Notes: generated by a model from the letters alone, not told the origin. Numbered from the stretch's first letter, positions 22,742 to 49,039 are shown. The stretch: 54,361 bases of DNA from Thermoplasmata archaeon (GCA_030037875.1 JASHPV010000183.1:1-54361), one strand, 5' to 3'. Made by a program: numbers and translations.

Positions 22742-23269
22742 ATGATGGCCACTGGGATGCATCGAATCAAGGTCGTGAACGAGATCAGCGACCTCGTACC
22801 GGTCCTGCGCGCCGTCGACACGCCGCTCAAGCTCAAACTGCTCCAACGCCTGTCCGAAACGTGGCTCACCCCCGAGGATGTGCAGCGCGAGTTCGGGAAG
22901 GAGGGGCTGAAGGTCCTCACCCTCTTCGAGAAGCTCAAGCTGGTCGACACCCGGTGGGTGGCCCGCGAGGGGCGCAAGACGCCGGACAAGAGCTACCACA
23001 CCTACTACGGGACCATCAACATCAACACCACGGCGCCGCTGACGGAGGTCTCCGAGATCCTCGCGATCGCCAGCATGGACGACAAGGAGTACGCCAAGCT
23101 GGAGCAGAAGATCTACGACGCGGTCGGCGAGGGGGGCATGTTCTTCTCGGACATCGCCGAACAGCTCGGCATGTCGCCGACGCGGCTCAAGGGACTCGTG
23201 AAGCGATCGGACAAGCTCGAGTACCGGGGGCATCGGATCGAGCGGTTCCATGCCCGCGCCACGCCGTAA
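22742..23269 (+). CDS. Archaeal ArsR-like HTH transcriptional regulator
   Basis: KVVNE.SDLVP.L, W.T, L.DT.W, P.K.YHTYY pattern of a conserved euryarchaeal family. Confidence 0.7.
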   Translation: MMATGMHRIKVVNEISDLVPVLRAVDTPLKLKLLQRLSETWLTPEDVQREFGKEGLKVLTLFEKLKLVDTRWVAREGRKTPDKSYHTYYGTININTTAPLTEVSEILAIASMDDKEYAKLEQKIYDAVGEGGMFFSDIAEQLGMSPTRLKGLVKRSDKLEYRGHRIERFHARATP

Positions 23270-23807
23270 ACGACGTCGACCGGACGTCGCGGTGCTCCGG
23301 GTCGGCCATCGTCCGGGACGCGACCCCCGGCTCACCACCCACCTGGCCCTGGCGGCCCGGGCGCTCGGGGCGTCCCGGCTCTTCTTGCATCCTCCGGACC
23401 CCGAGCTCGCGGACCGTATCGCAGCGGTCGCTCGACGCTGGGGCGGCACGTTTGGCGTGCTCGGCGTATCGTCCTGGAAGCCGGTGCTCTCCGAATATCG
23501 AGGGGGCGTGGTGCACCTGACGATGTACGGCGAAGCCCTGACGAGCGTGCTCCCTCGGATACGGCGCGCGCCCCGGCTGCTCGTTGTGGTTGGGGGCGCG
23601 AAGGTGCCCGCCGCGCTCTTCGAGGACGCGGACTACAACCTGGCGATCGGATCCCAGCCCCACAGCGAGGTGGCGGCACTGGCGGTGTTCCTTCATCGGC
23701 TGCTCGGAGACACCCCCCCGTCTCGCTTCCGAGGTGGCGAGCAGCGCATCATCCCTCAACGCCGAGGCAAGCGCGTGCTGGCGGTCCGGGGGAGGAACCC
23801 CGGATGA
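23250..23807 (+). CDS. trm56: tRNA (cytidine-56-2'-O)-methyltransferase
   Basis: LR.GHRP.RD.R.TTH..L.ARALGA, WGG.F, VHLTMYG, QPHSEVAALAVFL. Confidence 0.95.
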   Translation: MPAPRRKRRRPDVAVLRVGHRPGRDPRLTTHLALAARALGASRLFLHPPDPELADRIAAVARRWGGTFGVLGVSSWKPVLSEYRGGVVHLTMYGEALTSVLPRIRRAPRLLVVVGGAKVPAALFEDADYNLAIGSQPHSEVAALAVFLHRLLGDTPPSRFRGGEQRIIPQRRGKRVLAVRGRNPG

Positions 23808-37636: not shown

Positions 37637-40600
37637 TCAAGTGGGAGCGACGGGGAAGGCGACCTTCAACATCTCAACCTCTCCCGGGGTCAAAAGTCGA
37701 GGGTTGACCGGCACCCACACCGCGGTCCCGGAGGCCTGGGCTCGCACGTGCAGCTCCCGGAGCAGTTTCAACACGGGCGCCAGCGTGTTGACCGTGACGA
37801 GGTACTCGAAGCCTTCGAGCAGCACCGCACTGACGTGGCCCTCTCCCAGCGCACTAACGAAGAGCGTCTCGAGCGCCGCGACGTCGCTTGGCCGCACCGA
37901 GTTCTGACGCCCGACATTGGAGAGCCAGATCACGGTGATGTCCCGAGTTCCGATGCGCCGGCGGAGCCGGTCCGGAAACTCTCGCGTGACGCAAAGACCC
38001 CGGCGGCCGACCGACACGGCATCGAGGAATCGGCTCCAGGCCGCGTCCGTGGTGTCCTCGACGAGGAGTTCGATGCCTTGATGGAGCAAGGACGTCGGCG
38101 CAGGTGCCGCTTCGGCCACGTCCGCGGACACGGGCGGTTTCCACGGGGGAAGCGGAACGGCTTCGGGTCGGGGAGCCGGCGGAGCCACTGCGCGGATCAC
38201 GGGAGGGGTCGCTGCGGGACCCGCGCGCGGGAGGGCGGGAGTGGAGACACTCGGCAGAGTCGGGACCGAGGCACTGGGAGACGCCGAGGAGATCGGTTCG
38301 GGCACCGTCGGTTCTGGGAGAGACTCCGGGGGCGCAGCCTCCGGTTCGGGAGCGGGCTCCGGCTCGGGAGGCTCAACGCGCGGGGGAGGCCAGACCCAGA
38401 TACGGTCCGGGACCGCTCCTCCGAAGTGGCGGACCACCTCCCGGGCGAGATACGGTCCGAATCCGGGCACGGTGACCAGCTTCTCGTACGGCGCGTGGGA
38501 AAGGGACTCGAAATCTGTGAATCCCGCGTCCCAGGCGGCGGCGAGCTTGGTGACACCCAAGTAGGGTGCGCCGACGGCCTGGTCGAGTTGCTCCAGCGTA
38601 CCGTGGAGGGTCGTCTCCCGGTTCCGTACCTCCTCACTCAAGAAATCCGGACCCTCGGACTCCACCGGTTCGAAGCGTACGGCCTGGCGCCCCCGTCGGC
38701 CAAGATGCCGGGAAACGCGGGCCTTGCGCCGTCCCACCGGTCGTGGGAGGCCCGGTACCCAGATCCGCCATCGCGTGCCGACCGCGGTCCGGCCATTCGT
38801 GGTCTCTCCAGGGATGAACCGCGTCCCGCTCGACACCGCCTCAAAGCGAGGTACGCGAAGAGACTGTGCAATCGCCACGGCATGGCTTCGGAGCTCCTCC
38901 TCGAGCGCCGGAGGCGCCTCGACCCAAACCTCCGTGATGTTCGAACCCGCCGGCGCGGAGGTCAGTCGTCGACGCGCCGAACGCACTACGCGGTACGCGT
39001 CGGGACCTAGCCCTAACATTAGGTCGAGCGCGGCGGAGCTGGTTCCTTGGGGGAGCTTGAGATACAGCTCTCCCTGGGGCGCCGGCAGCACCATCATCCC
39101 GGGAGGGAGCGCGTCGATCAGTTCGACCATCGACGGGAGCAGCTGTACGGGGCTCGCGCCGAGCACAACGCTGAGCGTCTGATTCCGCAGCGCCTCCTTG
39201 ACCCTCTTCCCGGGCATCTGAGAGACCAACGTGGCGATCCGCCCGGCGCTCGCCCGATAGACGCGCTGGAGCTCGGCCAGGTTCGGTTCGACGCGGATCT
39301 GGCGGCCTTCCCACGGGCGGGCCGGTGAGGCGATCTCGATGCTCTCGGTTGGAAGCACGCGCGTGAGAACGGGCAGCAGGGCCTGGAGTTCCGCGGCGAC
39401 CGCCTCGTCGCGCGCATTGACCACGACGCTGGCCCACCGAATCGAACGCGGCAACGACAGCCGGTGACGGGCCCGCTCGACGGCCAGGGCGATCGGAACG
39501 AGTCGGTCCAGCAGCTTCTCGGAGGCCGGATCGACGAGACTCTGTCGGACCGGGGCAAGCGGCGCCTCGAACAGGCTCCGGGCGTCGTCCCGAAGGGAAC
39601 GGTCGATGGCCTCCATGGTGAAGGGAGCGAAGGGGGCCCACAGCTGTGCGAGCCCAGACACCACGTAGACCAGCACTCGTTCAGCGGCCGTTTTGCCGGG
39701 GCTTTGAGCGGCCTCATCGAGGCGGCTTCGAGCGATCAGCAGGTACTGCTCCCGGAGGTCGTGGTCGGCGAACCGGGTGATGCGGTCGAGCGTTTGGGGG
39801 AACCGCCCCGCGGCCAATCCCGCCAGCGCGTCGGCCCGAAACCGTTCGAAGCGGGACACGAAGGCCCGGTCCTCTTCGGGCAACGAATCTCGGACCCGGG
39901 CGAGGGACTGGTCCCCGAGCGGAAGGCCGTCCCGAGCGAGGCTTCCGGAGAGCTGGTACGCCACTCGCCAAAATCTCCGTAGGTGCCGCACATCCTCGGC
40001 CACTACGGACGCGAGGGGGGAGGCAGCCCGGCGTCGGGTGGCCATCCGAACGAGAGCGCAGCGGACCGCGTCGACGGGAGCGGCCGGGTCCACGCGAGCC
40101 GAGGCCTCGTCCACGGAACCGGTCGGCACGAGGATGAGGCGAGTGTCGGCCGGACGCGCGGACGCCGCGAACTGGCCGACGAGGTGGGTCAACAGCAGTG
40201 GCCCCCTCCGCTGTTCGGGCAATAGCAGTCCGACCCCATTGTCCGTGGGAAATGGGTTCATGCGGGCCCATCGGTAGAGCGCCTCATTGAACACCGGAAG
40301 CAGACGCCGCCGTACTTCGACTCGAACGCCTCCACAGGAGCATTTGGGACCCGTCCCCGCCGGTGCGAGCCGTGAGCAGCTTCCACACTCTTGGAGGGCC
40401 GGGTACGCGGGGTCCTCGGTGGTCCGTGCGTCGGTCGCCGGCCAAGGCACCACCTCCGACGCCAAGGGTAGCGCCTCCCCGGGCAGAAGCTGCTTGAAAA
40501 GGTACAACGTTTCGGCGTCGATCCGGTCCGGTTCCAGCCTCCACGCCCGGCCGGGCCTCCAGAAGAGACCGGTCCCGCAGTCCCCGCACCGCGGAACTCC

Positions 40601-41686
40601 GTGCCGGACGCGCAACTGAGCGAAGATGAGGGCACCGTCGTTCAGATCCCGCAGGATGAACGCCTCGGCGGTATCCACGGGGAGGCCCTGGTACTTGTGT
40701 GCCGATTGTCCTTCCAATCTCCCGTTAGCCGAGAGGACCGGCCATCCCGGGATCTCGAGTTTTTCGGCGATGCGCGCGTCCGACGCCCCGTGTGCCGGGG
40801 TCAAGGTGACGATGCCGGTACCGCTGTCTCCCACCTCGACCGACGTCTGGAGGAGCCCTCCCGGGCTGAGCAACGAGTAGAGTGGAGGGTACTCCGAGCC
40901 CAAGGGATGGACGTACGCCCGACCCTGCCAGGAGGCGCCGGGGTGCTCCTCGAGCACCTCGATCTCGGAATCGGGGAGCCACGCCCGGAGACGGTCCAAG
41001 CTGGATTTGCTGGTGAGAACCCTCTCTTCCGACCCCCGCCGGGTGAATTTTGCGATAACGTACGGCAGGGTCGGATTCAGGAGCACCGCCGTCGTGCCGA
41101 GAAGTTTCCAGGCCGAGTCCGTCCACACCAACGCGTCGACCCGGGGCTCGGTGTCGCGCAGGGCGAACCGGACGAGGTAAGCGGGACCCTCCTCGTCCAC
41201 GTAAACGAGGTTCGCAGGTCCCTTCGGCTCGCGGCAACGAGGACACCAACGGAGCGGGCCTTCCTTGGCGACCAGGACATTGGTCTCGGCCAACCGGCCA
41301 AGCATCCCATCCACGATCGTGGTGAGCTCCGGACGGACCGTCGGTTCCAGCGCACCATGGCCGTACCAGAGTCCCAACCCCTCCCACTGGGCCGCGGCCG
41401 TGGGGGGCACGCCCTCGCCGGGTCGGGTCCCGAACAGGACCGGTCCCGTGGCGGTTCGCTCGAGGAGAAGCTGCGCCCGCGCGGCCACGTCGGCGAGCAG
41501 CCCTCGCTGGAGCAACGGGAGAGGAACCTCCCCCCGAGACGGAATCCCGCCGATGGAGAGGTGCGTCGGAGGCCCCCCGCGATCCGGCCGGTCGTCCGGC
41601 CCCGGCGGCAGCCCCCGCCCCGACCAGAGCTCCCGGGCCTCGCTCTCGACCGCGTGGGGATCCAATACTGGGGCCAACGCGCGCAA
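37637..41686 (-). CDS. Degenerate isoleucyl-tRNA synthetase paralog fused to HhH, Pro-rich linker and DUF835
   Basis: Collinear IleRS landmarks (WCPRC, LVWT..W.L, GTGIV...PAHG..D, P.C..C.T.L, DR...SR, APF.PF..E); HIGH and KMSKS absent; C-terminal GLC.TR.FP..W.S...LLEG.EYL...N. Confidence 0.85.
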   Translation of the reverse strand: MRALAPVLDPHAVESEARELWSGRGLPPGPDDRPDRGGPPTHLSIGGIPSRGEVPLPLLQRGLLADVAARAQLLLERTATGPVLFGTRPGEGVPPTAAAQWEGLGLWYGHGALEPTVRPELTTIVDGMLGRLAETNVLVAKEGPLRWCPRCREPKGPANLVYVDEEGPAYLVRFALRDTEPRVDALVWTDSAWKLLGTTAVLLNPTLPYVIAKFTRRGSEERVLTSKSSLDRLRAWLPDSEIEVLEEHPGASWQGRAYVHPLGSEYPPLYSLLSPGGLLQTSVEVGDSGTGIVTLTPAHGASDARIAEKLEIPGWPVLSANGRLEGQSAHKYQGLPVDTAEAFILRDLNDGALIFAQLRVRHGVPRCGDCGTGLFWRPGRAWRLEPDRIDAETLYLFKQLLPGEALPLASEVVPWPATDARTTEDPAYPALQECGSCSRLAPAGTGPKCSCGGVRVEVRRRLLPVFNEALYRWARMNPFPTDNGVGLLLPEQRRGPLLLTHLVGQFAASARPADTRLILVPTGSVDEASARVDPAAPVDAVRCALVRMATRRRAASPLASVVAEDVRHLRRFWRVAYQLSGSLARDGLPLGDQSLARVRDSLPEEDRAFVSRFERFRADALAGLAAGRFPQTLDRITRFADHDLREQYLLIARSRLDEAAQSPGKTAAERVLVYVVSGLAQLWAPFAPFTMEAIDRSLRDDARSLFEAPLAPVRQSLVDPASEKLLDRLVPIALAVERARHRLSLPRSIRWASVVVNARDEAVAAELQALLPVLTRVLPTESIEIASPARPWEGRQIRVEPNLAELQRVYRASAGRIATLVSQMPGKRVKEALRNQTLSVVLGASPVQLLPSMVELIDALPPGMMVLPAPQGELYLKLPQGTSSAALDLMLGLGPDAYRVVRSARRRLTSAPAGSNITEVWVEAPPALEEELRSHAVAIAQSLRVPRFEAVSSGTRFIPGETTNGRTAVGTRWRIWVPGLPRPVGRRKARVSRHLGRRGRQAVRFEPVESEGPDFLSEEVRNRETTLHGTLEQLDQAVGAPYLGVTKLAAAWDAGFTDFESLSHAPYEKLVTVPGFGPYLAREVVRHFGGAVPDRIWVWPPPRVEPPEPEPAPEPEAAPPESLPEPTVPEPISSASPSASVPTLPSVSTPALPRAGPAATPPVIRAVAPPAPRPEAVPLPPWKPPVSADVAEAAPAPTSLLHQGIELLVEDTTDAAWSRFLDAVSVGRRGLCVTREFPDRLRRRIGTRDITVIWLSNVGRQNSVRPSDVAALETLFVSALGEGHVSAVLLEGFEYLVTVNTLAPVLKLLRELHVRAQASGTAVWVPVNPRLLTPGEVEMLKVAFPVAPT

Positions 41687-42269: not shown

Positions 42270-42350
42270 GCGGACCGTCCATCATTTTCGATGCGGGGTG
42301 CCTAGCCGTCCGGCAAGGGTCCGCGTCGCTTGGGGGATCGAGGGTTCGGC

Positions 42351-45300
42351 ATGGCAGGACTCGGCTCGCTTTCCTCCTCCCGGCTCACCAAGTTGCTCCA
42401 AGAAAAAGCGGAGCAGCTCAAGAAACGGCGCGAAACGGCCGAAGCCGTCTTCAACGAGATCGAGGCTCGAGCGGAGCTCCTCTCCGCGGTCGGAGTGACC
42501 CTCCCCGACCTCGCCAGCAAGATTCCACCCCTGCGCGAGCTGCAACGAAAGGCCGACTGGGAGGCCCTCGAGACCCAGGCGAAGAGCGTCCTGGCCGAGA
42601 TGGAACAGGCGGCGCGGGAGCCCGTCGAAGAACGGCAAGCCGCCTTGGTGAAGCGCGCAGACCGTGTCGCTCTCGTGGGGAATCCCCTCCCCGCCGAGGC
42701 CCGGGCCTTGCTGGACGAGGTGGGACCCAAGATCCGCGAAGGGCAGTGGCGAGAGGCGTTCGAGCGGTTGGCCGCGATCGAGGAGGCTCTCGCCGGCCTC
42801 GAAAAGGCATACGAGACCAGCCTGTCGGACCGGGTTCGTTCCTTCGTTCGATGGGCGACGGGTGACGACGCCGTTCCACCCGCGCTGGAGACCGAGGTCC
42901 AACCGGTTCTCGCGGACTTGAAGGGCGCGAACCCGGAACCGGCTCAGAAGCAACTCGCCGAGATTCTGGAGCGGGAATTCCCTCAAGCCGTCGAGCGGCG
43001 CACCGGGGTACGCGAGAGCGCGGAAAGAGCTGTCCCTGCGGCCCGTGAGCTGGGCGCTTCCACGGGGGGTATCGAAGCCGCGCTCGAGGCGGACAAGCGC
43101 TCGTTCATCCTGGATTGGCCCCAGAGCGTCACGTTGGTCGAGCAGGCGATCGAGGGCCTCCAAACCATCCTGAGGGACCGCGTGGCCTCGACGATCGGCT
43201 CCCTCCGAGACACCCTGGAGTCGCTTCGAACGCAGGGCGTCGACCCCAACGAAGCGCTCGCATCTCTGGAACAGATATCCGCCCAACTGAGCACCGCGAA
43301 GAGCTACGACCTGCCGGGACTGGTGGCCACCGCCCGGGAAGCCGCCGAGGGACCCGTCGTTGCTGTCGTGGCTGGGGTGCTCGACGAAGTGCGGCCCCGG
43401 TTGGTCGAGGCCAGGCGCCTGGGCCGTGATCCGAGTGACGTCTTCGCCGCGATGAATCGCGCCCGGGAGGCATTGCGCCTCCGGATCTACGGGGAGGCCA
43501 TCGCGGCCAGTCAGGAGGCGCTCGAACGGGTCAGTACCCTCATCCAGGACATCGAGGGGGTTCGTTCGGAGGCGGAGTCGGTACGCGACATGCTGTCCCG
43601 GCTAGCGAAAAATGGCTTCGCGACGGCTCCGTTCGATGCGCAGATCACCCGCTCGCTCCAGGCGCTCGACCTCGGCGACCTCTCCGGGGCTCGTCGGCTG
43701 CTCCAGGAATCGATTTCCTCGCTGGGCCGAGATGCGGTGGCGCATTTCCAGGGCCGATTGACCAATCTCTCCCAATCTGTCGCCATCGCCAAGGAACGGG
43801 GGTTCCTGCCCCCGGAGGTCGAGGCCGCGGAGCAACAGGCACGCGTGGCGCTCGACGGGGGACGGCTCGCGGACGCCGGAGCGCTGCTCGGACAGATCGA
43901 TGCGGACCTGCGGGCCGCCGCCGCACCGTACATGTCTCGCCGACTCGAGGAGATGGAGAAAGGGCTCGCCGAGATCCCCGAGGAACAAGCGGTGACCCCC
44001 GTCCGCTCCTCGATGGCGGACGCCGACGTGAACCTCCGAGTCAAGGAGGACCTGTCCGCCTCCCTAGACTGCCTTCGGCGGGCCGAGCGGGAATTCTCTG
44101 CGGTCTTCGCGGCGCGTGCCTCGTCGCTCGTCGAGGCCCTAGCGCAGGAACGCCGGGTTCTGGAGGAGATGGGAGGGACGGGCGATGCGATCCAGCGGGA
44201 GATCGACGAAGTCGAGCAGATCTTCAACATGGGCGACTTCGTCAAGGCCTCGAGGGCCGCCCAGGAGATCCGGACGCGGACCCTTCAGCAGCAGCTCGTT
44301 CGTAGCGAAGAGGCCGTTTCTCACGCGAAGCTGGCGCTAATCGAACTGGAGACAATGGGGCTCGATGTCTCTGCTCTTCGGACGGATCTCGAACTGGCCC
44401 AAGAGGCGGCCCGGAGTTCGAAGCATGCCGAAGCTTTCAAGGTCTCCGAGGCCACCGCCTCCACGGCCCGGAAACTCAAGACCGAAGCCCAGGAAGTCCT
44501 GGACCTGTTGGCCGAGACGGGGGAGCAGCACGCGGCCCTCGCCAAGCTGGGCCAGTCCGTCGAGGAGTACCGCGCGTCCGTTCAGGAAGCCAAGCAGGCG
44601 TACCAGTCGCTCGACTTTCCCCATGCCCGGGCCGTTCTCGCGCAACTCCGCGAGGAGCTGCAGAGCACGAGTCTGCGGACGGAGGCGGTCCGGCTACTCG
44701 CGGAGGCCAAGCTGGTCGTGGAGGACGGTCGCCGTCTCTCGGTTCCGATGGATGCCGCCATGGAACGGGTGGGTCACGTATCCAAGCTGTTGGAGGAAGG
44801 CCATCTCCGCGAGGCCGCGGCCGAGATTCGGTCCGTGCACGCCGAGCTCATCTCGCTGGTACGGCCGGTGCTGGAAGAGAACCTGCGAGCGGTGGAGAGC
44901 GACGCCGATACGGCCCGCGGCATCGGCCTCGACGTGGCAGCGGTGGCCGCGACGCTCGGGGAGGCGCGGCGTCGACTCAGCCAGCCCGTGCCGACCGGCG
45001 TGGCGCCGCTGATCGAGAGTGCCCGTTCCCAGTTCTTCGAGAGCCGGGGATTCCTGGAGCATTCCGACCGTGTGCTGCGGCGAGCCTCGGACGCACTCAA
45101 TCAGGCGGAACTGGTCCGCGTCGACGTGGCCCAGCCGCGCGAGCGACTCCGGAAGGTCCAAGAACTGATTGGCCAACGGGAGTACCCGAGGGCGATCGAG
45201 CAAGCGTCGTCCCTCGAACGGGAGCTCACCCAGGCCACGACCCAGCAGGTGTCCCGGTCGCTGGCCGGATTCCAGGGCCTGGTCGCTCGGGCCCGACAGC

Positions 45301-46814
45301 AAGGGGTCGACACAACCCTGGCAGAGAATTTCCTCCAGCAGGCGCGCGCGGCGCTCGACAATTCGCAACCGATCGAGGCCCTCCAGCTCGCGGCCCGGGC
45401 CGAGAGCGAAATCGAACGGGTCGAACTCCAGCACTCCATCGCCCAGGGCTCCCTCGAGACGATGGAACGAAAGCTGAGCGCGGCGGAGAAGGACGGCGTC
45501 GTCGCTCCCGCCGCCTCGGAGGAACTCGGCCGGGCCCGCACCGCGTTCGCGCGGCACGACTACGTCGAGGTTCTCGAGATGACACTGGCCACGTCCGACT
45601 CGCTCGCCATCGCCCGGGAGTACCACCGACGAGCCATGGAAGCGATCGAGGTGGCCGACCGGCACGTCAAGGAGGCCGGACATCTCTCGGCGGAGGTCTC
45701 CGAAGCCGCCGCCACATTGGCCTCGGCACGCGAGCTGGCGACCGCGGGCCAGTACGTGGACGCGATCCGGCGCGCTCGGGAGGGGTCCGAGAAAGCGCGT
45801 TGGGCCACCGAACGTCTCTACTCCGGCGGACTCGAAGAGGCCCGCCGGCTGCTTGAACTCGCCCAACGATGGGTACCCGATGCGGCACCCCAGATCGCTA
45901 CTAATGTGGACGACGCCGAAGCCGCGCTTAAGGCTCGTGAGTGGAACCGGGTCACCGACCGACTTCGCCGCGCGCGCGAGCTCGCCGACCTCTCGCTCGG
46001 AGGCGCGCTGGACGCCCGTCAGGACACCCTGCGTGGGCAGTACGATCGCATCCTCGGCGTCGATGCCGCCGAGAAGGATCGCCGCGCCGAGGTACTGCGC
46101 CGGCTTTCGGAGCTACGGGGCCGGCATGCCTATACCGACGCCTTCGAAACCGCTCGAGAGGAGGAGACGCGCCTCGCCGATACCCGCGTGACGGAACTGC
46201 GCCGCCGGACGAAGGACCTCGAGGATAGCCTCCTCGTCGGCGAGAAGCTCGGCCTCGACACCACGCCGGTCATGCAGCTGTTCAGCGAGGCGAAGATCGC
46301 CCTGCAGGCCGGGAAGGTCGATCCGGTGGGAGCCCTGCTCGACAAGGCGATGGCGCTCCTGGGCACCATCGTGAAGCCCCGCGTGTCGGACAAGCTGCGG
46401 GACGTCCGCGCCGAGTACGTGTTCGCCCGGGACGGTCTCAACGTGAACCTCGGAACCGTCGGGGAGATCCTGGATGGAATCCCCCGCCTCGTCGAACGTG
46501 GGGAGCTCGTGGATGCGGCCCGGATGCTGCTGAGCTGCGAGGAGCAGGTCAACCAGCGGAAGGCGCAGCAGCGCGAATTGACGAACCTGCACTATCTCGT
46601 CGACGCCGCCCTGTCCCAGGCCCGGGAAAAGGGCTTGGACACCACGAAGGCCCAGGAGTTGCTGTCGGCCTCGATACAGGCGCGGAGCACGGATTATGGC
46701 GTGGCGCTCGAAAAGGCCCGACAGGCCCATGAGACGCTCAAGGCCCTGCTGAAGCCCCCGGAGGCGCCCAGCACGTTCTGGCCGTTCCGTCGCGCTCCCG
46801 GGAGCGGGACCTAG
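42351..46814 (+). CDS. Large all-alpha helical-repeat/coiled-coil protein (~1487 aa)
   Basis: A/E/L/R-rich, recurrent xG(V/L)D turn, no Walker motifs, no TM. Confidence 0.85.
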   Translation: MAGLGSLSSSRLTKLLQEKAEQLKKRRETAEAVFNEIEARAELLSAVGVTLPDLASKIPPLRELQRKADWEALETQAKSVLAEMEQAAREPVEERQAALVKRADRVALVGNPLPAEARALLDEVGPKIREGQWREAFERLAAIEEALAGLEKAYETSLSDRVRSFVRWATGDDAVPPALETEVQPVLADLKGANPEPAQKQLAEILEREFPQAVERRTGVRESAERAVPAARELGASTGGIEAALEADKRSFILDWPQSVTLVEQAIEGLQTILRDRVASTIGSLRDTLESLRTQGVDPNEALASLEQISAQLSTAKSYDLPGLVATAREAAEGPVVAVVAGVLDEVRPRLVEARRLGRDPSDVFAAMNRAREALRLRIYGEAIAASQEALERVSTLIQDIEGVRSEAESVRDMLSRLAKNGFATAPFDAQITRSLQALDLGDLSGARRLLQESISSLGRDAVAHFQGRLTNLSQSVAIAKERGFLPPEVEAAEQQARVALDGGRLADAGALLGQIDADLRAAAAPYMSRRLEEMEKGLAEIPEEQAVTPVRSSMADADVNLRVKEDLSASLDCLRRAEREFSAVFAARASSLVEALAQERRVLEEMGGTGDAIQREIDEVEQIFNMGDFVKASRAAQEIRTRTLQQQLVRSEEAVSHAKLALIELETMGLDVSALRTDLELAQEAARSSKHAEAFKVSEATASTARKLKTEAQEVLDLLAETGEQHAALAKLGQSVEEYRASVQEAKQAYQSLDFPHARAVLAQLREELQSTSLRTEAVRLLAEAKLVVEDGRRLSVPMDAAMERVGHVSKLLEEGHLREAAAEIRSVHAELISLVRPVLEENLRAVESDADTARGIGLDVAAVAATLGEARRRLSQPVPTGVAPLIESARSQFFESRGFLEHSDRVLRRASDALNQAELVRVDVAQPRERLRKVQELIGQREYPRAIEQASSLERELTQATTQQVSRSLAGFQGLVARARQQGVDTTLAENFLQQARAALDNSQPIEALQLAARAESEIERVELQHSIAQGSLETMERKLSAAEKDGVVAPAASEELGRARTAFARHDYVEVLEMTLATSDSLAIAREYHRRAMEAIEVADRHVKEAGHLSAEVSEAAATLASARELATAGQYVDAIRRAREGSEKARWATERLYSGGLEEARRLLELAQRWVPDAAPQIATNVDDAEAALKAREWNRVTDRLRRARELADLSLGGALDARQDTLRGQYDRILGVDAAEKDRRAEVLRRLSELRGRHAYTDAFETAREEETRLADTRVTELRRRTKDLEDSLLVGEKLGLDTTPVMQLFSEAKIALQAGKVDPVGALLDKAMALLGTIVKPRVSDKLRDVRAEYVFARDGLNVNLGTVGEILDGIPRLVERGELVDAARMLLSCEEQVNQRKAQQRELTNLHYLVDAALSQAREKGLDTTKAQELLSASIQARSTDYGVALEKARQAHETLKALLKPPEAPSTFWPFRRAPGSGT

Positions 46815-47271: not shown

Positions 47272-47395
47272 GGCCGTTGACAGCTGTGCGCGGTATATGG
47301 CGGTCGCGGCGGTGTCCGGAACGGTGCACGCGGGATGTTGTTCGCTCTGCCGGCGAAAGCCTCAAAGAGGCTCCATCCTAACCGCCGCCGGGCGC

Positions 47396-47498
47396 GCTCC
47401 CGTAGTCTAGTGGTCAAGGATAGAGGCCTCTCGAGCCTCTGACGCGGGTTCAAATCTGCGCCGGACCGGTCCGGCCGGTGAAACTCCCGCCGGGAGCA
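47396..47498 (+). tRNA. trnE: tRNA-Glu(CTC) with 30-nt intron at position 59/60 (intron 47455-47484)
   Basis: Acceptor GCTCCCG/CGGGAGC+A, anticodon stem GAGGC/GCCTC with CTC at 47430-47432, T stem GCGGG/CCCGC. Intron removal restores TTCAAAT. CCA not encoded. Confidence 0.93.
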
Positions 47499-47569
47499 TG
47501 CCCATGCCAACTAAAGGGTCGTCCCGCACGGCGACAAGGACATCCCATTGGACTCAAGGGTCCCACCAG

Positions 47570-48151
47570 TTAGGTGGTAGGAGGCTTAGGTGGCTTACTC
47601 CTCTGCCGGCGAATCGCGAAGGCGAGGCCTGCGCCAACCCCGACAACCGGCACGGCGAGGAGCAGGAACACCGACAGAACGGAGGGCGCCACGAGAACCG
47701 CGGGGCAGCCTGCGCAGACAGCCGGATTTTCTTGAAAGAACGGACCTGTGACGTTCCCAGTGGAGGAGTTAGCCGCCCAGTACTCCTGCTCCGAACATTC
47801 ACCGAATGCATGGGCCCACGTAGTGTTCCGACATGTTGCAATCCAGACGAAACCCCAGTCGTAAAACGTCCCATTCGGCCCACCGGAGCTACCCCAGGTG
47901 AAGTTCATAATCCCCCAGGCACGAAGAGCAGCACCGAACTGAGCCTCGCTGCAGATTTCTAGGAACTGGGAGGAGTTCACCTCAGGATCTGCGTTCAGGA
48001 TCGTTGTGCAGGCGGAGGCGAGTGCCGTCTGCCCGTGGAACCCCTCCATGTCCGGACTCGCAACCGCAAGTCCTACGCCTTGCCCGCAGAGGGCAAGGAT
48101 TGCAAGGAGAACCAGCAGCTTCGGGAAGGCAAGGAAAGAGGACCGAGGCAT
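47570..48151 (-). CDS. Secreted Cys-rich protein with C-terminal membrane anchor
   Basis: Signal peptide, six Cys and several N-x-S/T sequons in the mature part, TM followed by RRQRSK. Confidence 0.7.
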   Translation of the reverse strand: MPRSSFLAFPKLLVLLAILALCGQGVGLAVASPDMEGFHGQTALASACTTILNADPEVNSSQFLEICSEAQFGAALRAWGIMNFTWGSSGGPNGTFYDWGFVWIATCRNTTWAHAFGECSEQEYWAANSSTGNVTGPFFQENPAVCAGCPAVLVAPSVLSVFLLLAVPVVGVGAGLAFAIRRQRSKPPKPPTT

Positions 48152-48217
48152 CGCGCCCTCGGCCCATAGATGGGGTTACTTGACTTGAAGTCCTCGTCCG
48201 AGACAGGCGGGGCCGAT

Positions 48218-49039
48218 ATGTCGACCCGATATCTCGTCGTGGTCAGCGAGGCGGATTCCACGGCATCGTTCATCGCCGAGCGATGGGGGACCCCGCCGAG
48301 TATCGGTGAATTCGTCGAGGGGTCCGCGCTGCGGCAACTCGCTCCGGAAGTGGAGCTGCTTCGGCGCCCGGGTCTTCATGTCCTCGATGCGTCGCTCAGC
48401 CATGCCCTGCCCGAACGGCTTCGGTCAGTTCCGATCGTATTCCCGGCCCGGCACCGGAGCGAGAGCGGCATCGCTTGTCTGACGGTTCACCCGCTTGGTA
48501 ACCTCGGACCGACGGCGGAAGTGGGGGGCGAGCCCGGCCGGCTCGTCCCCACTGCTGCCCGTCTGATGGCCGACGCGTTACGGCAGCTGGAGGAGCCGGC
48601 TCGGGCCATCGCGGTACCCGTTACCTATGAGGCCACGCATCACGGTCCTTTGCTGCACCAACCGGCCTTCTTCGTGGAAATCGCTGACGCGTTACCGGAG
48701 GCCGAAAGGCGCGCCGTGGCGATTCCTCTTGCCGACTCGCTATTGGACCTGGATGAGGATCCGGCCGACCGGGTGGTCGTCGGCGTCGGGGGAGGGCACT
48801 ACGCCCCGCACTTCACCGAACTAGCTCTGACACGCCGCTGGGCTTTTGGTCACATGGTTCCCCGACACGCCTTGGAAGGTCTCACCGCGGACGTGCAACG
48901 GCAACTTCGGGGCGGATCCCCTTCGGCGGAAGGCGTGCTCTTCCAGCGGGCGGCGGATGCGGACCGGCCCGAATGGAAGGGCTGGGGCGCGCGACTTCGT
49001 GACCCCGACGCTCCCCCGCGACCAACGGGCGAGGCGTAG
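48218..49039 (+). CDS. dtdA: D-aminoacyl-tRNA deacylase (archaeal DTD2)
   Basis: S..D.AS, RH.S, LTVH..GN, YEATHHGP, FVEI, G.GGGHYAP, FGH. Confidence 0.9.
   Translation: MSTRYLVVVSEADSTASFIAERWGTPPSIGEFVEGSALRQLAPEVELLRRPGLHVLDASLSHALPERLRSVPIVFPARHRSESGIACLTVHPLGNLGPTAEVGGEPGRLVPTAARLMADALRQLEEPARAIAVPVTYEATHHGPLLHQPAFFVEIADALPEAERRAVAIPLADSLLDLDEDPADRVVVGVGGGHYAPHFTELALTRRWAFGHMVPRHALEGLTADVQRQLRGGSPSAEGVLFQRAADADRPEWKGWGARLRDPDAPPRPTGEA

Follow-up and report, generated by a model that had tools for sequence, protein, structure and literature searches.

A tRNA-Glu(CUC) Gene Interrupted Within the T Loop

The window studied, i.e., the whole stretch of 54,361 nucleotides analyzed from a Thermoplasmata archaeon (GCA_030037875.1, JASHPV010000183.1:1-54361), contains a 103-nt tRNA-Glu(CUC) gene at positions 47396-47498 (plus strand), in which tRNA positions 59 and 60 are separated by 30 nt. 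This locus raises the question of whether the insert is an intron removed from the precursor by splicing, a lesion that has inactivated the gene, or a lasting addition to the tRNA. The gene reads GCTCCCG-TA-GTCT-AGTGGTCAA-GGAT-A-GAGGC-CTCTCGA-GCCTC-TGAC-GCGGG-TTCA-AAT-[CTGCGCCGGACCGGTCCGGCCGG]-TGAA-ACT-CCCGC-CGGGAGC-A. Its acceptor stem (GCTCCCG/CGGGAGC) consists of seven perfect base pairs, and CCA is not encoded at the 3' end. The following features were distinguished:

47362-47369, plus strand: possible TATA-like box TCAAAGAG, lying 27-34 nt upstream of the gene and proposed from the sequence only
47396-47454, plus strand: 5' exon with tRNA positions 1-59 (acceptor 5' strand, D arm, anticodon arm, T stem 5' strand and T-loop nucleotides 54-59), equal to the first 59 nt of the intronless orthologues L016-L018
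47430-47432, plus strand: anticodon CTC, as read
47444-47448 and 47486-47490, plus strand: T stem GCGGG/CCCGC, as read
47449-47452, plus strand: 5' strand of the central helix of the bulge-helix-bulge (BHB), TTCA, i.e., T54, T55, C56 and A57, from the sequence and a constrained fold
47453-47455, plus strand: 5' bulge AAT with a predicted cut at 47454/47455, placed by the BHB rule and the intronless orthologues
47455-47484, plus strand: 30-nt intron, the in-silico removal of which leaves a 73-nt tRNA-Glu(ctc) according to ARAGORN
47456-47478, plus strand: intron hairpin h' of 23 nt, obtained by folding (3 bp, a bulged C, 6 bp and a tetraloop)
47479-47482, plus strand: 3' strand of the BHB central helix, TGAA, within the intron, as read
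47483-47485, plus strand: 3' bulge ACT with a predicted cut at 47484/47485, from sequence and BHB geometry
47485-47498, plus strand: 3' exon with T60, the 3' strands of T stem and acceptor stem, and discriminator A, from the sequence

The exon-intron boundaries form a 3-4-3 BHB, featuring two 3-nt bulges on opposite strands with a 4-bp helix between them. Helices are located on both sides of this motif, namely the T stem (h) and the intron hairpin (h'), so that it is classified as hBHBh'. In silico, cutting after the second bulge base takes out 30 nt and restores the T loop TTCAAAT. When the complete 103 nt were folded (-48.1 kcal/mol, z = -2.5), acceptor stem, T stem and intron hairpin all formed. 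For T arm plus intron, the 4-bp central helix was open in the minimum free energy structure (-23.0 kcal/mol, versus -22.7 kcal/mol for the BHB-constrained fold); in this folding model, both structures are isoenergetic, forcing of the BHB costing only 0.3 kcal/mol. The putative TATA-like box resembles A/T-rich boxes located equally far upstream of other tRNA genes in the same genome. As a separate observation, the 16 nt directly upstream of the tRNA (47380-47395, AACCGCCGCCGGGCGC) resemble its 3' end (47482-47497, AACTCCCGCCGGGAGC), with 13/16 identical positions.

Default tRNA scans had been expected, in the preliminary description, to mishandle such genes, and this proved correct. ARAGORN called the gene with a wrong 3' half (47396-47468), and the match of the unspliced gene to the Rfam tRNA model (RF00005) was partial, reaching 31.5 bits over model positions 5-66 only and thus passing the gathering cut-off of 29 bits. 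An intronless orthologue identical to the spliced product achieved 68.2 bits over positions 1-71 of the same model.

Intronless Orthologues and Covariation Within the Insert

After removal of 47455-47484, the tRNA was found to be 73/73 identical to the intronless tRNA-Glu(CUC) genes of three genomes (G019, G014 and G016; loci L016-L018), and 69-72/73 identical to five other intronless orthologues. Since these natural intronless genes equal the predicted product, the spliced form is supplied by nature. Orthologues were searched for in 40 related genomes, 24 of which belong to the family. The gene carries the intron in 14 of these 24 genomes (8/8 of genus g1, to which the genome under study, G000, belongs, 3/3 of g5 and 3/3 of g6) and is intronless in eight (three of g7, three of g3, one of g2 and one of g4), while it was not recognized in the remaining two, both from g4. 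Furthermore, an exact-pattern scan using one genome per species recovered the interrupted gene in at least 119 species-level records, and the records with the gene are deposited as 'Thermoplasmata archaeon', 'Candidatus Lutacidiplasmatales archaeon' or 'Candidatus Lutacidiplasma silvani'.

The 119 scan loci and 15 loci from the related-genome search were combined into a set of 134. Within this set, the 5' exon is identical in 105 loci and the 3' bulge is ACT in 105, while 120 loci possess distinct T-arm-plus-intron sequences. Intron lengths vary from 16 to 37 nt (mostly 28-32 nt), and the 3' tetramer of the central helix is GGAA in 76 loci, TGAA in 31 and another sequence in 27. A covariance model was supplied with 100 of the 134 loci and returned 101 matches, one of them being the second T-loop-intron tRNA in locus L034. 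Among the 101 aligned sequences, 90.6% of cells were paired versus 81.9% after shuffling, the alignment for this count having been fitted to the structure of the model. The covariation score amounted to 0.235 versus 0.088 for shuffled data, with 0/500 shuffles as high and slid controls not exceeding 0.059; for the 119 scan loci, the search pattern itself prescribed the T stem and TTCA, whose pairs are uninformative for this reason. In the inner helix, changes on both sides were observed for 8/8 pairs, with 89% of cells paired, and this helix begins immediately after the bulge in 99/101 sequences. The bulges are invariant in length and form gap-free columns. U54 and U55 each lie opposite A or G in all 101 sequences and C56 opposite G likewise in 101/101, whereas A57 faces U in 26 and another base, almost always G, in 74. 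Across these loci, the intron hairpin is hypervariable in sequence yet stays paired.

These data bear on two rival interpretations of the insert. According to the first, tRNA-Glu(CUC) was killed by a 30-nt insertion into the T loop, GAG being read by another tRNA-Glu. Such a pseudogene would explain the poor or truncated calls of default finders, and tRNA-Glu(UUC) was not found in the 90.5%-complete assembly, so that redundancy is not assessable. However, the exons are strongly constrained, as illustrated by the 5' exon being identical in most loci, and exon mutations were not seen accumulating in close relatives. The insert itself varies freely and nevertheless keeps its pairing and exact bulge lengths, and it was retained in all eight genomes of the genus as well as in two further genera. 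A separate intronless tRNA-Glu(CTC), regarded in the preliminary description as the sign of a pseudogene, was not found: the genome under study as well as G006 and G008, two nearly closed genomes of the same genus, each encode a single full-length copy, a second one being absent from all three. Considering also that twelve other tRNA genes of the genome share the same architecture, a pseudogene is the least credible reading of the locus.

The second interpretation proposes that the insert is retained, yielding a mature tRNA with an extra hairpin arm protruding from the T loop, and it draws on the fact that the insert always forms a stable hairpin. Conservation, however, applies to the geometry of a splice motif and not merely to a hairpin, as seen from the invariant bulges, the C56-G pair and the constant start of the inner helix. 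Retention would moreover sequester the T loop, with loss of the G18/G19 contacts and of T-loop modifications in a third of the tRNAs. This tRNA is used without an intron in sister genera, and the genome encodes both EndA and RtcB. This possibility is very remote as well, albeit slightly less so than inactivation of the gene.

BHB geometry by itself does not carry the case. A purely geometric hBHBh' scan, accepting any 3-4-3 motif with short flanking helices, delivered 105,843 candidates in the 1.77-Mb genome, so that geometry alone does not exceed chance. An ARAGORN tRNA across the junction is restored by only 23 candidates, including the tRNA-Glu(CUC) locus. It is this small number, together with the complete identity of the product to natural genes and the covariation reached by none of the shuffles, that places the locus beyond chance. 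The comparative evidence thus bears out the original proposal of a tRNA-Glu(CUC) with an intron at 59/60 in a strict BHB, the removal of 30 nt restoring TTCAAAT. We consider it highly probable that 47396-47498 represents a functional single-copy tRNA-Glu(CUC) gene whose 30-nt intron at 59/60 is BHB-spliced as proposed; splicing of the pre-tRNA is what we infer from these sequence comparisons.

Thirteen T-Loop Introns in the Same Genome

The sequences flanking weak Rfam tRNA hits revealed this architecture at other sites of the genome as well. A T-loop-specific scan of the genome resulted in 16 candidates, 13 of which are tRNA genes interrupted at 59/60 by an intron of 29-35 nt. The genes concerned are Glu-CTC (the window gene), Ser-GGA, Arg-TCT, His-GTG, Ala-GGC, Ser-CGA, Lys-TTT, Ser-GCT, Gln-CTG, Gly-TCC, Asn-GTT, Arg-TCG and Asp-GTC. 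The remaining three candidates (one on contig C105 and two on C110) were false. The central helix is fully paired (4/4) in six of the 13 genes and contains an A57·G mismatch in seven. Accordingly, the designation 'perfect BHB' used initially is appropriate for the window gene but does not extend to the class, in which A57·G predominates both within this genome and among the aligned tRNA-Glu(CUC) sequences.

Approximately 39 tRNA genes are recognizable in the genome (34 Rfam hits plus His, Pro-GGG, Trp, Lys-TTT and Pro-TGG), about a third of which feature the 59/60 intron. Canonical introns were identified in four genes (Tyr, Met, Leu-TAA and Trp), and D-arm inserts in three:

C28:1056-1112, plus strand: Met-CAT with a D-arm insert
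C69:3452-3591, plus strand: Lys-TTT with D-arm and T-loop introns
C142:4677-4781, minus strand: Pro-TGG with a D-arm insert

Once the four canonical and three D-arm introns are added, about half of the tRNA genes are interrupted; for Euryarchaeota, a proportion of about 8% is given in the relevant part of a review (PMC4090602).

A covariance model of the T arm plus BHB, termed R1, detected the 13 genes with 39-52 bits, the next match, which does not represent a tRNA, achieving 20.5 bits. A weak R1 match on C128 was rejected as a tRNA on inspection. ARAGORN with the -i option, applied to the whole genome, produced many false positives with long introns, and its intron-mode calls on C11, C151, C57 and at C61:998 were likewise rejected on inspection. 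Apart from a YGRR-NN 3' end common to them and hairpins rich in G+C, no likeness among the 13 introns that would be a sign of recent transposition was obvious by eye. The genome also contains two tRNA-Thr(TGT) genes on different contigs (C53:6763-6835, plus strand, and C161:2890-2962, minus strand), both with 73.4 bits against Rfam, a pair that may stem from redundant strains or from a contig present twice in the assembly.

Distribution of T-Loop Introns in the Family, Order, Class and Phylum

To evaluate the prevalence of these introns, R1 was applied at three taxonomic levels. In the order scan (151 genomes), 144/144 genomes of the family (f1) displayed 4-15 matches, typically 9-14; this tally includes the unpublished genomes G043, G054 and G066, without which it amounts to 141/141. 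One weak match each was found in 4/4 genomes of family f2, and none in the two genomes of f3. The class scan (151 genomes) revealed 6-14 matches in 15/15 genomes of f1 and 1-3 matches (six in one genome) in 45/135 others, none being detected in families f8 (0/16), f10 (0/10) and f20 (0/12). In the phylum scan, comprising 151 genomes of at least 85% completeness, 1-2 matches were obtained for 14/147 genomes outside f1. The preliminary description had regarded such intron sites as uncommon in euryarchaea; for the organism studied here, this assessment of rarity does not hold in view of same-site introns in 13 tRNA genes of one genome and in every sampled genome of its family.

Among 52 matches from five other f1 genera, 40 were assignable, and these are located on the same isoacceptors as in the genome under study. 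The set of 13 introns is therefore old and maintained. Position 57 covaries with the opposing intron base: G57 pairs with C, and A57 mostly faces G, which is far commoner than U. The genes for Asp-GTC, Gly-TCC and Arg-TCT switch between the position-57 states among genera. Twenty matches outside f1 exhibit the same geometry, with TTCR opposite YGRR and the bulges AA|N and NN|T, and reside in Leu-TAA, His, Lys-TTT, Ser-TGA and a doubly interrupted tRNA classified by ARAGORN as Arg-CCG or Trp-CCA.

Within the same order, a tRNA-Glu(CUC) of family f3 (L028:1501-1600, genome G026) contains a 13-nt mini-intron at 59/60 (TTCA-AAG-CTATGT-TGAA-AAT), and its anticodon arm carries another short insert on the 3' side. 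Since R1 misses this mini-intron, the counts outside f1 are lower bounds. Locus L034 harbors two T-loop-intron tRNA genes about 100 nt apart (172-225 and 326-376, both on the minus strand), the intron hairpins of which are A+T-rich, unlike those of the Lutacidiplasmatales relatives.

The publication naming the order Lutacidiplasmatales used tRNAscan-SE, and the word 'intron' is absent from its main text (PMC9287336). In the literature on tRNA introns of Thermoplasmata and Lutacidiplasmatales, supplements aside, no description of the present pattern was found.

Splicing and Modification Machinery

The genome encodes a single splicing endonuclease gene (contig C32), the 355-aa ORF of which is matched twice each by PF01974 and PF02778. 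Judged from its sequence, this EndA is of the two-unit α'2-type architecture, a dimer being presumed by type only. Its closest solved relatives are the enzymes of M. kandleri (5X89, a fused enzyme; E 2e-36) and A. fulgidus (1R0V; E 9e-31). The C-terminal unit is the catalytic one: among the aligned Thermoplasmata EndAs, Y291, H299 and K330 do not vary (16/16), and these residues align with Y295, H303 and K334 of M. kandleri 5X89, which are described as catalytic in the pertinent section of PMC5829648. RtcB is present on contig C64 (575 bits).

Non-canonical introns are tied, in the portions of the literature considered, to (αβ)2 or ε2 EndA with an inserted loop, and reviews, in their relevant passages, limit α4/α'2 lineages to 37/38 introns, except for M. 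kandleri and M. thermautotrophicus. The Crenarchaea-specific loop, as described in the corresponding part of PMC3241643, replaces EKGDL (174-178) of A. fulgidus between β3 and β4. A specific-loop insertion (CSL/L1, ASL/L2) is absent here: EndA YGSRIGSRLELSL aligns gap-free to A. fulgidus YGSEKGDLVTLSL, and the EKGDL site is occupied by 'RIGSR' of the same length. The length at this site is equal in 14/15 other Thermoplasmata EndAs, from intron-rich and intron-free genomes alike, G174 being too diverged to judge. A loop difference in EndA was rejected as the cause of the intron expansion, as intron-rich and intron-free families do not differ in length. In the assays reported for the α'2 EndA of A. 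fulgidus, a D-loop BHB intron was hardly cut (relevant section of PMC3241643), and a relaxed T-loop intron was barely cut in the data consulted; by analogy, these assays would count against easy cleavage in the organism studied here.

The window additionally carries a gene relevant to the T loop:

23250-23807, plus strand: gene for aTrm56, the tRNA C56 2'-O-methyltransferase (PF01994, 126.4 bits in the genome search and 125.2 bits for the ORF)

Proposed Order of Splicing and T-Loop Maturation

In the precursor, U54-U55-C56-A57 would pair with the terminal UGAA of the intron, flanked by the two 3-nt bulges. The α'2-type EndA is predicted to cut after the second base of each bulge (47454/47455 and 47484/47485), and RtcB would then ligate A59 to U60. 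Because U54, U55 and C56 are paired in this precursor, the T loop and the D/T elbow would form only post-splicing; the T loop would then fold, meet the D loop and become modified, including Cm56 formation by aTrm56. Cm56 and the other T-loop modifications thus probably follow splicing, and the earlier suggestion that methylation comes after splicing appears reasonable given the aTrm56 gene in the window and the C56-G pair present in every aligned sequence.

The common site may be explained by the exon half of the motif, which is the near-universal TTCRA, so that an intron ending in YGAA-NN would fit any tRNA; this exon strand is likely the reason for the shared 59/60 position.

The Region Downstream of the tRNA and a Possible Use of the Intron

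A further alternative accepts splicing but assumes that the intron is kept for use, either by disrupting the T-arm/3'-end sequence serving archaeal integrases as an attachment site (the Randau-Soll idea) or by gating the order of T-loop modification and end processing. In favor of such a use, the intron persists in the same 13 isoacceptors of different genera despite sequence turnover, and a variable slot lies exactly at the tRNA 3' end and differs among same-genus genomes:

47504-48169, no strand: variable slot, about 650 bp long, which separates the tRNA from the gene for D-aminoacyl-tRNA deacylase (48170-49039), delimited by same-genus comparison

Homology to same-genus genomes ends 5 nt past the tRNA and resumes inside the deacylase gene. 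The latter is located about 650 bp nearer to the tRNA in G006, G007 and G008, while G005 contains a different filler of similar size. A protective role has already been published as a hypothesis. On the other hand, no attL/attR-like repeat of the tRNA 3' part was found in 47380-48300, and the slot does not qualify as an integration site on this basis. The ORFs of the slot (47498-47962, plus strand, and 47570-48151, minus strand) matched no Pfam or PHROG family, leaving no integrase or phage family there, and no viral contig of the collection matched the intronless 25-nt T-arm/3' end exactly. As BHB introns are rarely deleted precisely, neutral retention predicts persistence too. A selected use is accordingly viewed as doubtful, although it deserves distinctly more credit than a pseudogene or a retained insert.

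Two long ORFs were also recorded in this part of the window. The one just upstream of the tRNA (1494 aa; 42330-46814, plus strand) has no Pfam family, and the other (1349 aa; 37637-41686, minus strand) contains only a class I tRNA ligase anticodon-binding domain (residues 606-750) and a C-terminal DUF835.

Implications

On balance, we lean towards the broader view that a family of soil Thermoplasmata has fixed about 13 introns at 59/60, more than half of them with A57·G, while possessing only a loop-less α'2-type EndA. If this is true, the textbook link, according to which α4/α'2 EndA processes canonical 37/38 introns only, fails, and the universal TTCRA represents a ready-made exon half by means of which one intron type could colonize many tRNAs. 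The apparent processing of 13 T-loop introns, seven of them with A·G, by such an enzyme would offer a natural test of the limits of EndA specificity. In a third of the tRNAs, elbow formation, T-loop modifications and possibly RNase P/Z recognition would have to be timed relative to splicing.

For genome annotation, the consequences are practical ones. A third of the tRNA genes of this lineage is truncated or missed by default finders, which distorts the tRNA counts used in grading metagenome-assembled genomes, and missed tRNA genes can suggest false gaps in the decoding set. Furthermore, the combination of one site, the same isoacceptors across genera and fast intron turnover provides a clean system for dating gains and losses.

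Comparison with Known Systems

The BHB intron at 59/60 is a known type, whereas the lineage is new and the scale unexpected. The position is probably a frequent intron site in Thermoproteales too.

Compared to the 37/38 introns of Euryarchaeota (A. fulgidus, 1R0V/2GJW), the introns described here share the 3-4-3 motif and the α4/α'2 enzyme architecture. They differ by their location in the T loop, by an exon strand represented by TTCR instead of the anticodon, and by a fourth pair that is mostly A·G.

Thermoproteales/Crenarchaeota and Thaumarchaeota, as far as described in the relevant parts of PMC3241643 and PMC8450103, resemble the present case in that BHB introns occur at sites other than 37/38, among them the T loop, many of the genes are interrupted, and default finders mis-annotate them. 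In those groups, however, many positions are interrupted and the enzyme is an (αβ)2 EndA with the Crenarchaea-specific loop, whereas in this study a single position is affected in a lineage of euryarchaeal type.

In Asgard archaea, according to a preprint (bioRxiv 10.64898/2026.10.13.758758), the canonical site and the T arm are the places where introns accumulate, and insertions in the T arm form canonical motifs most often. The likeness applies at the level of the T arm; Asgard archaea belong to another phylum, and their EndA is described with an L1 loop in the section concerned of PMC5829648.

For ARMAN-2 (Candidatus Micrarchaeum acidiphilum), the pertinent passages of Fujishima et al. 2011 (PMC3239211) report a 13-nt relaxed hBH intron at 59/60 in pre-tRNA-Cys(GCA) and strict hBHBh' introns at 53/54 and 59/60 in pre-tRNA-Pro(GGG), the sites overlapping with major insertion sites of archaea with the (αβ)2 enzyme. 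ARMAN-2 and the genome under study thus have in common the 59/60 site, the BHB logic and many interrupted tRNA genes (56% in ARMAN-2, as stated there). In contrast, the EndA of ARMAN-2 is, by the same source, a three-unit ε2 enzyme with a broad-specificity loop, while the one encoded here is of the two-unit α'2 type and contains no insertion, and in the genome studied one site accounts for 13 genes, the introns of which are 29-35-nt hairpins.
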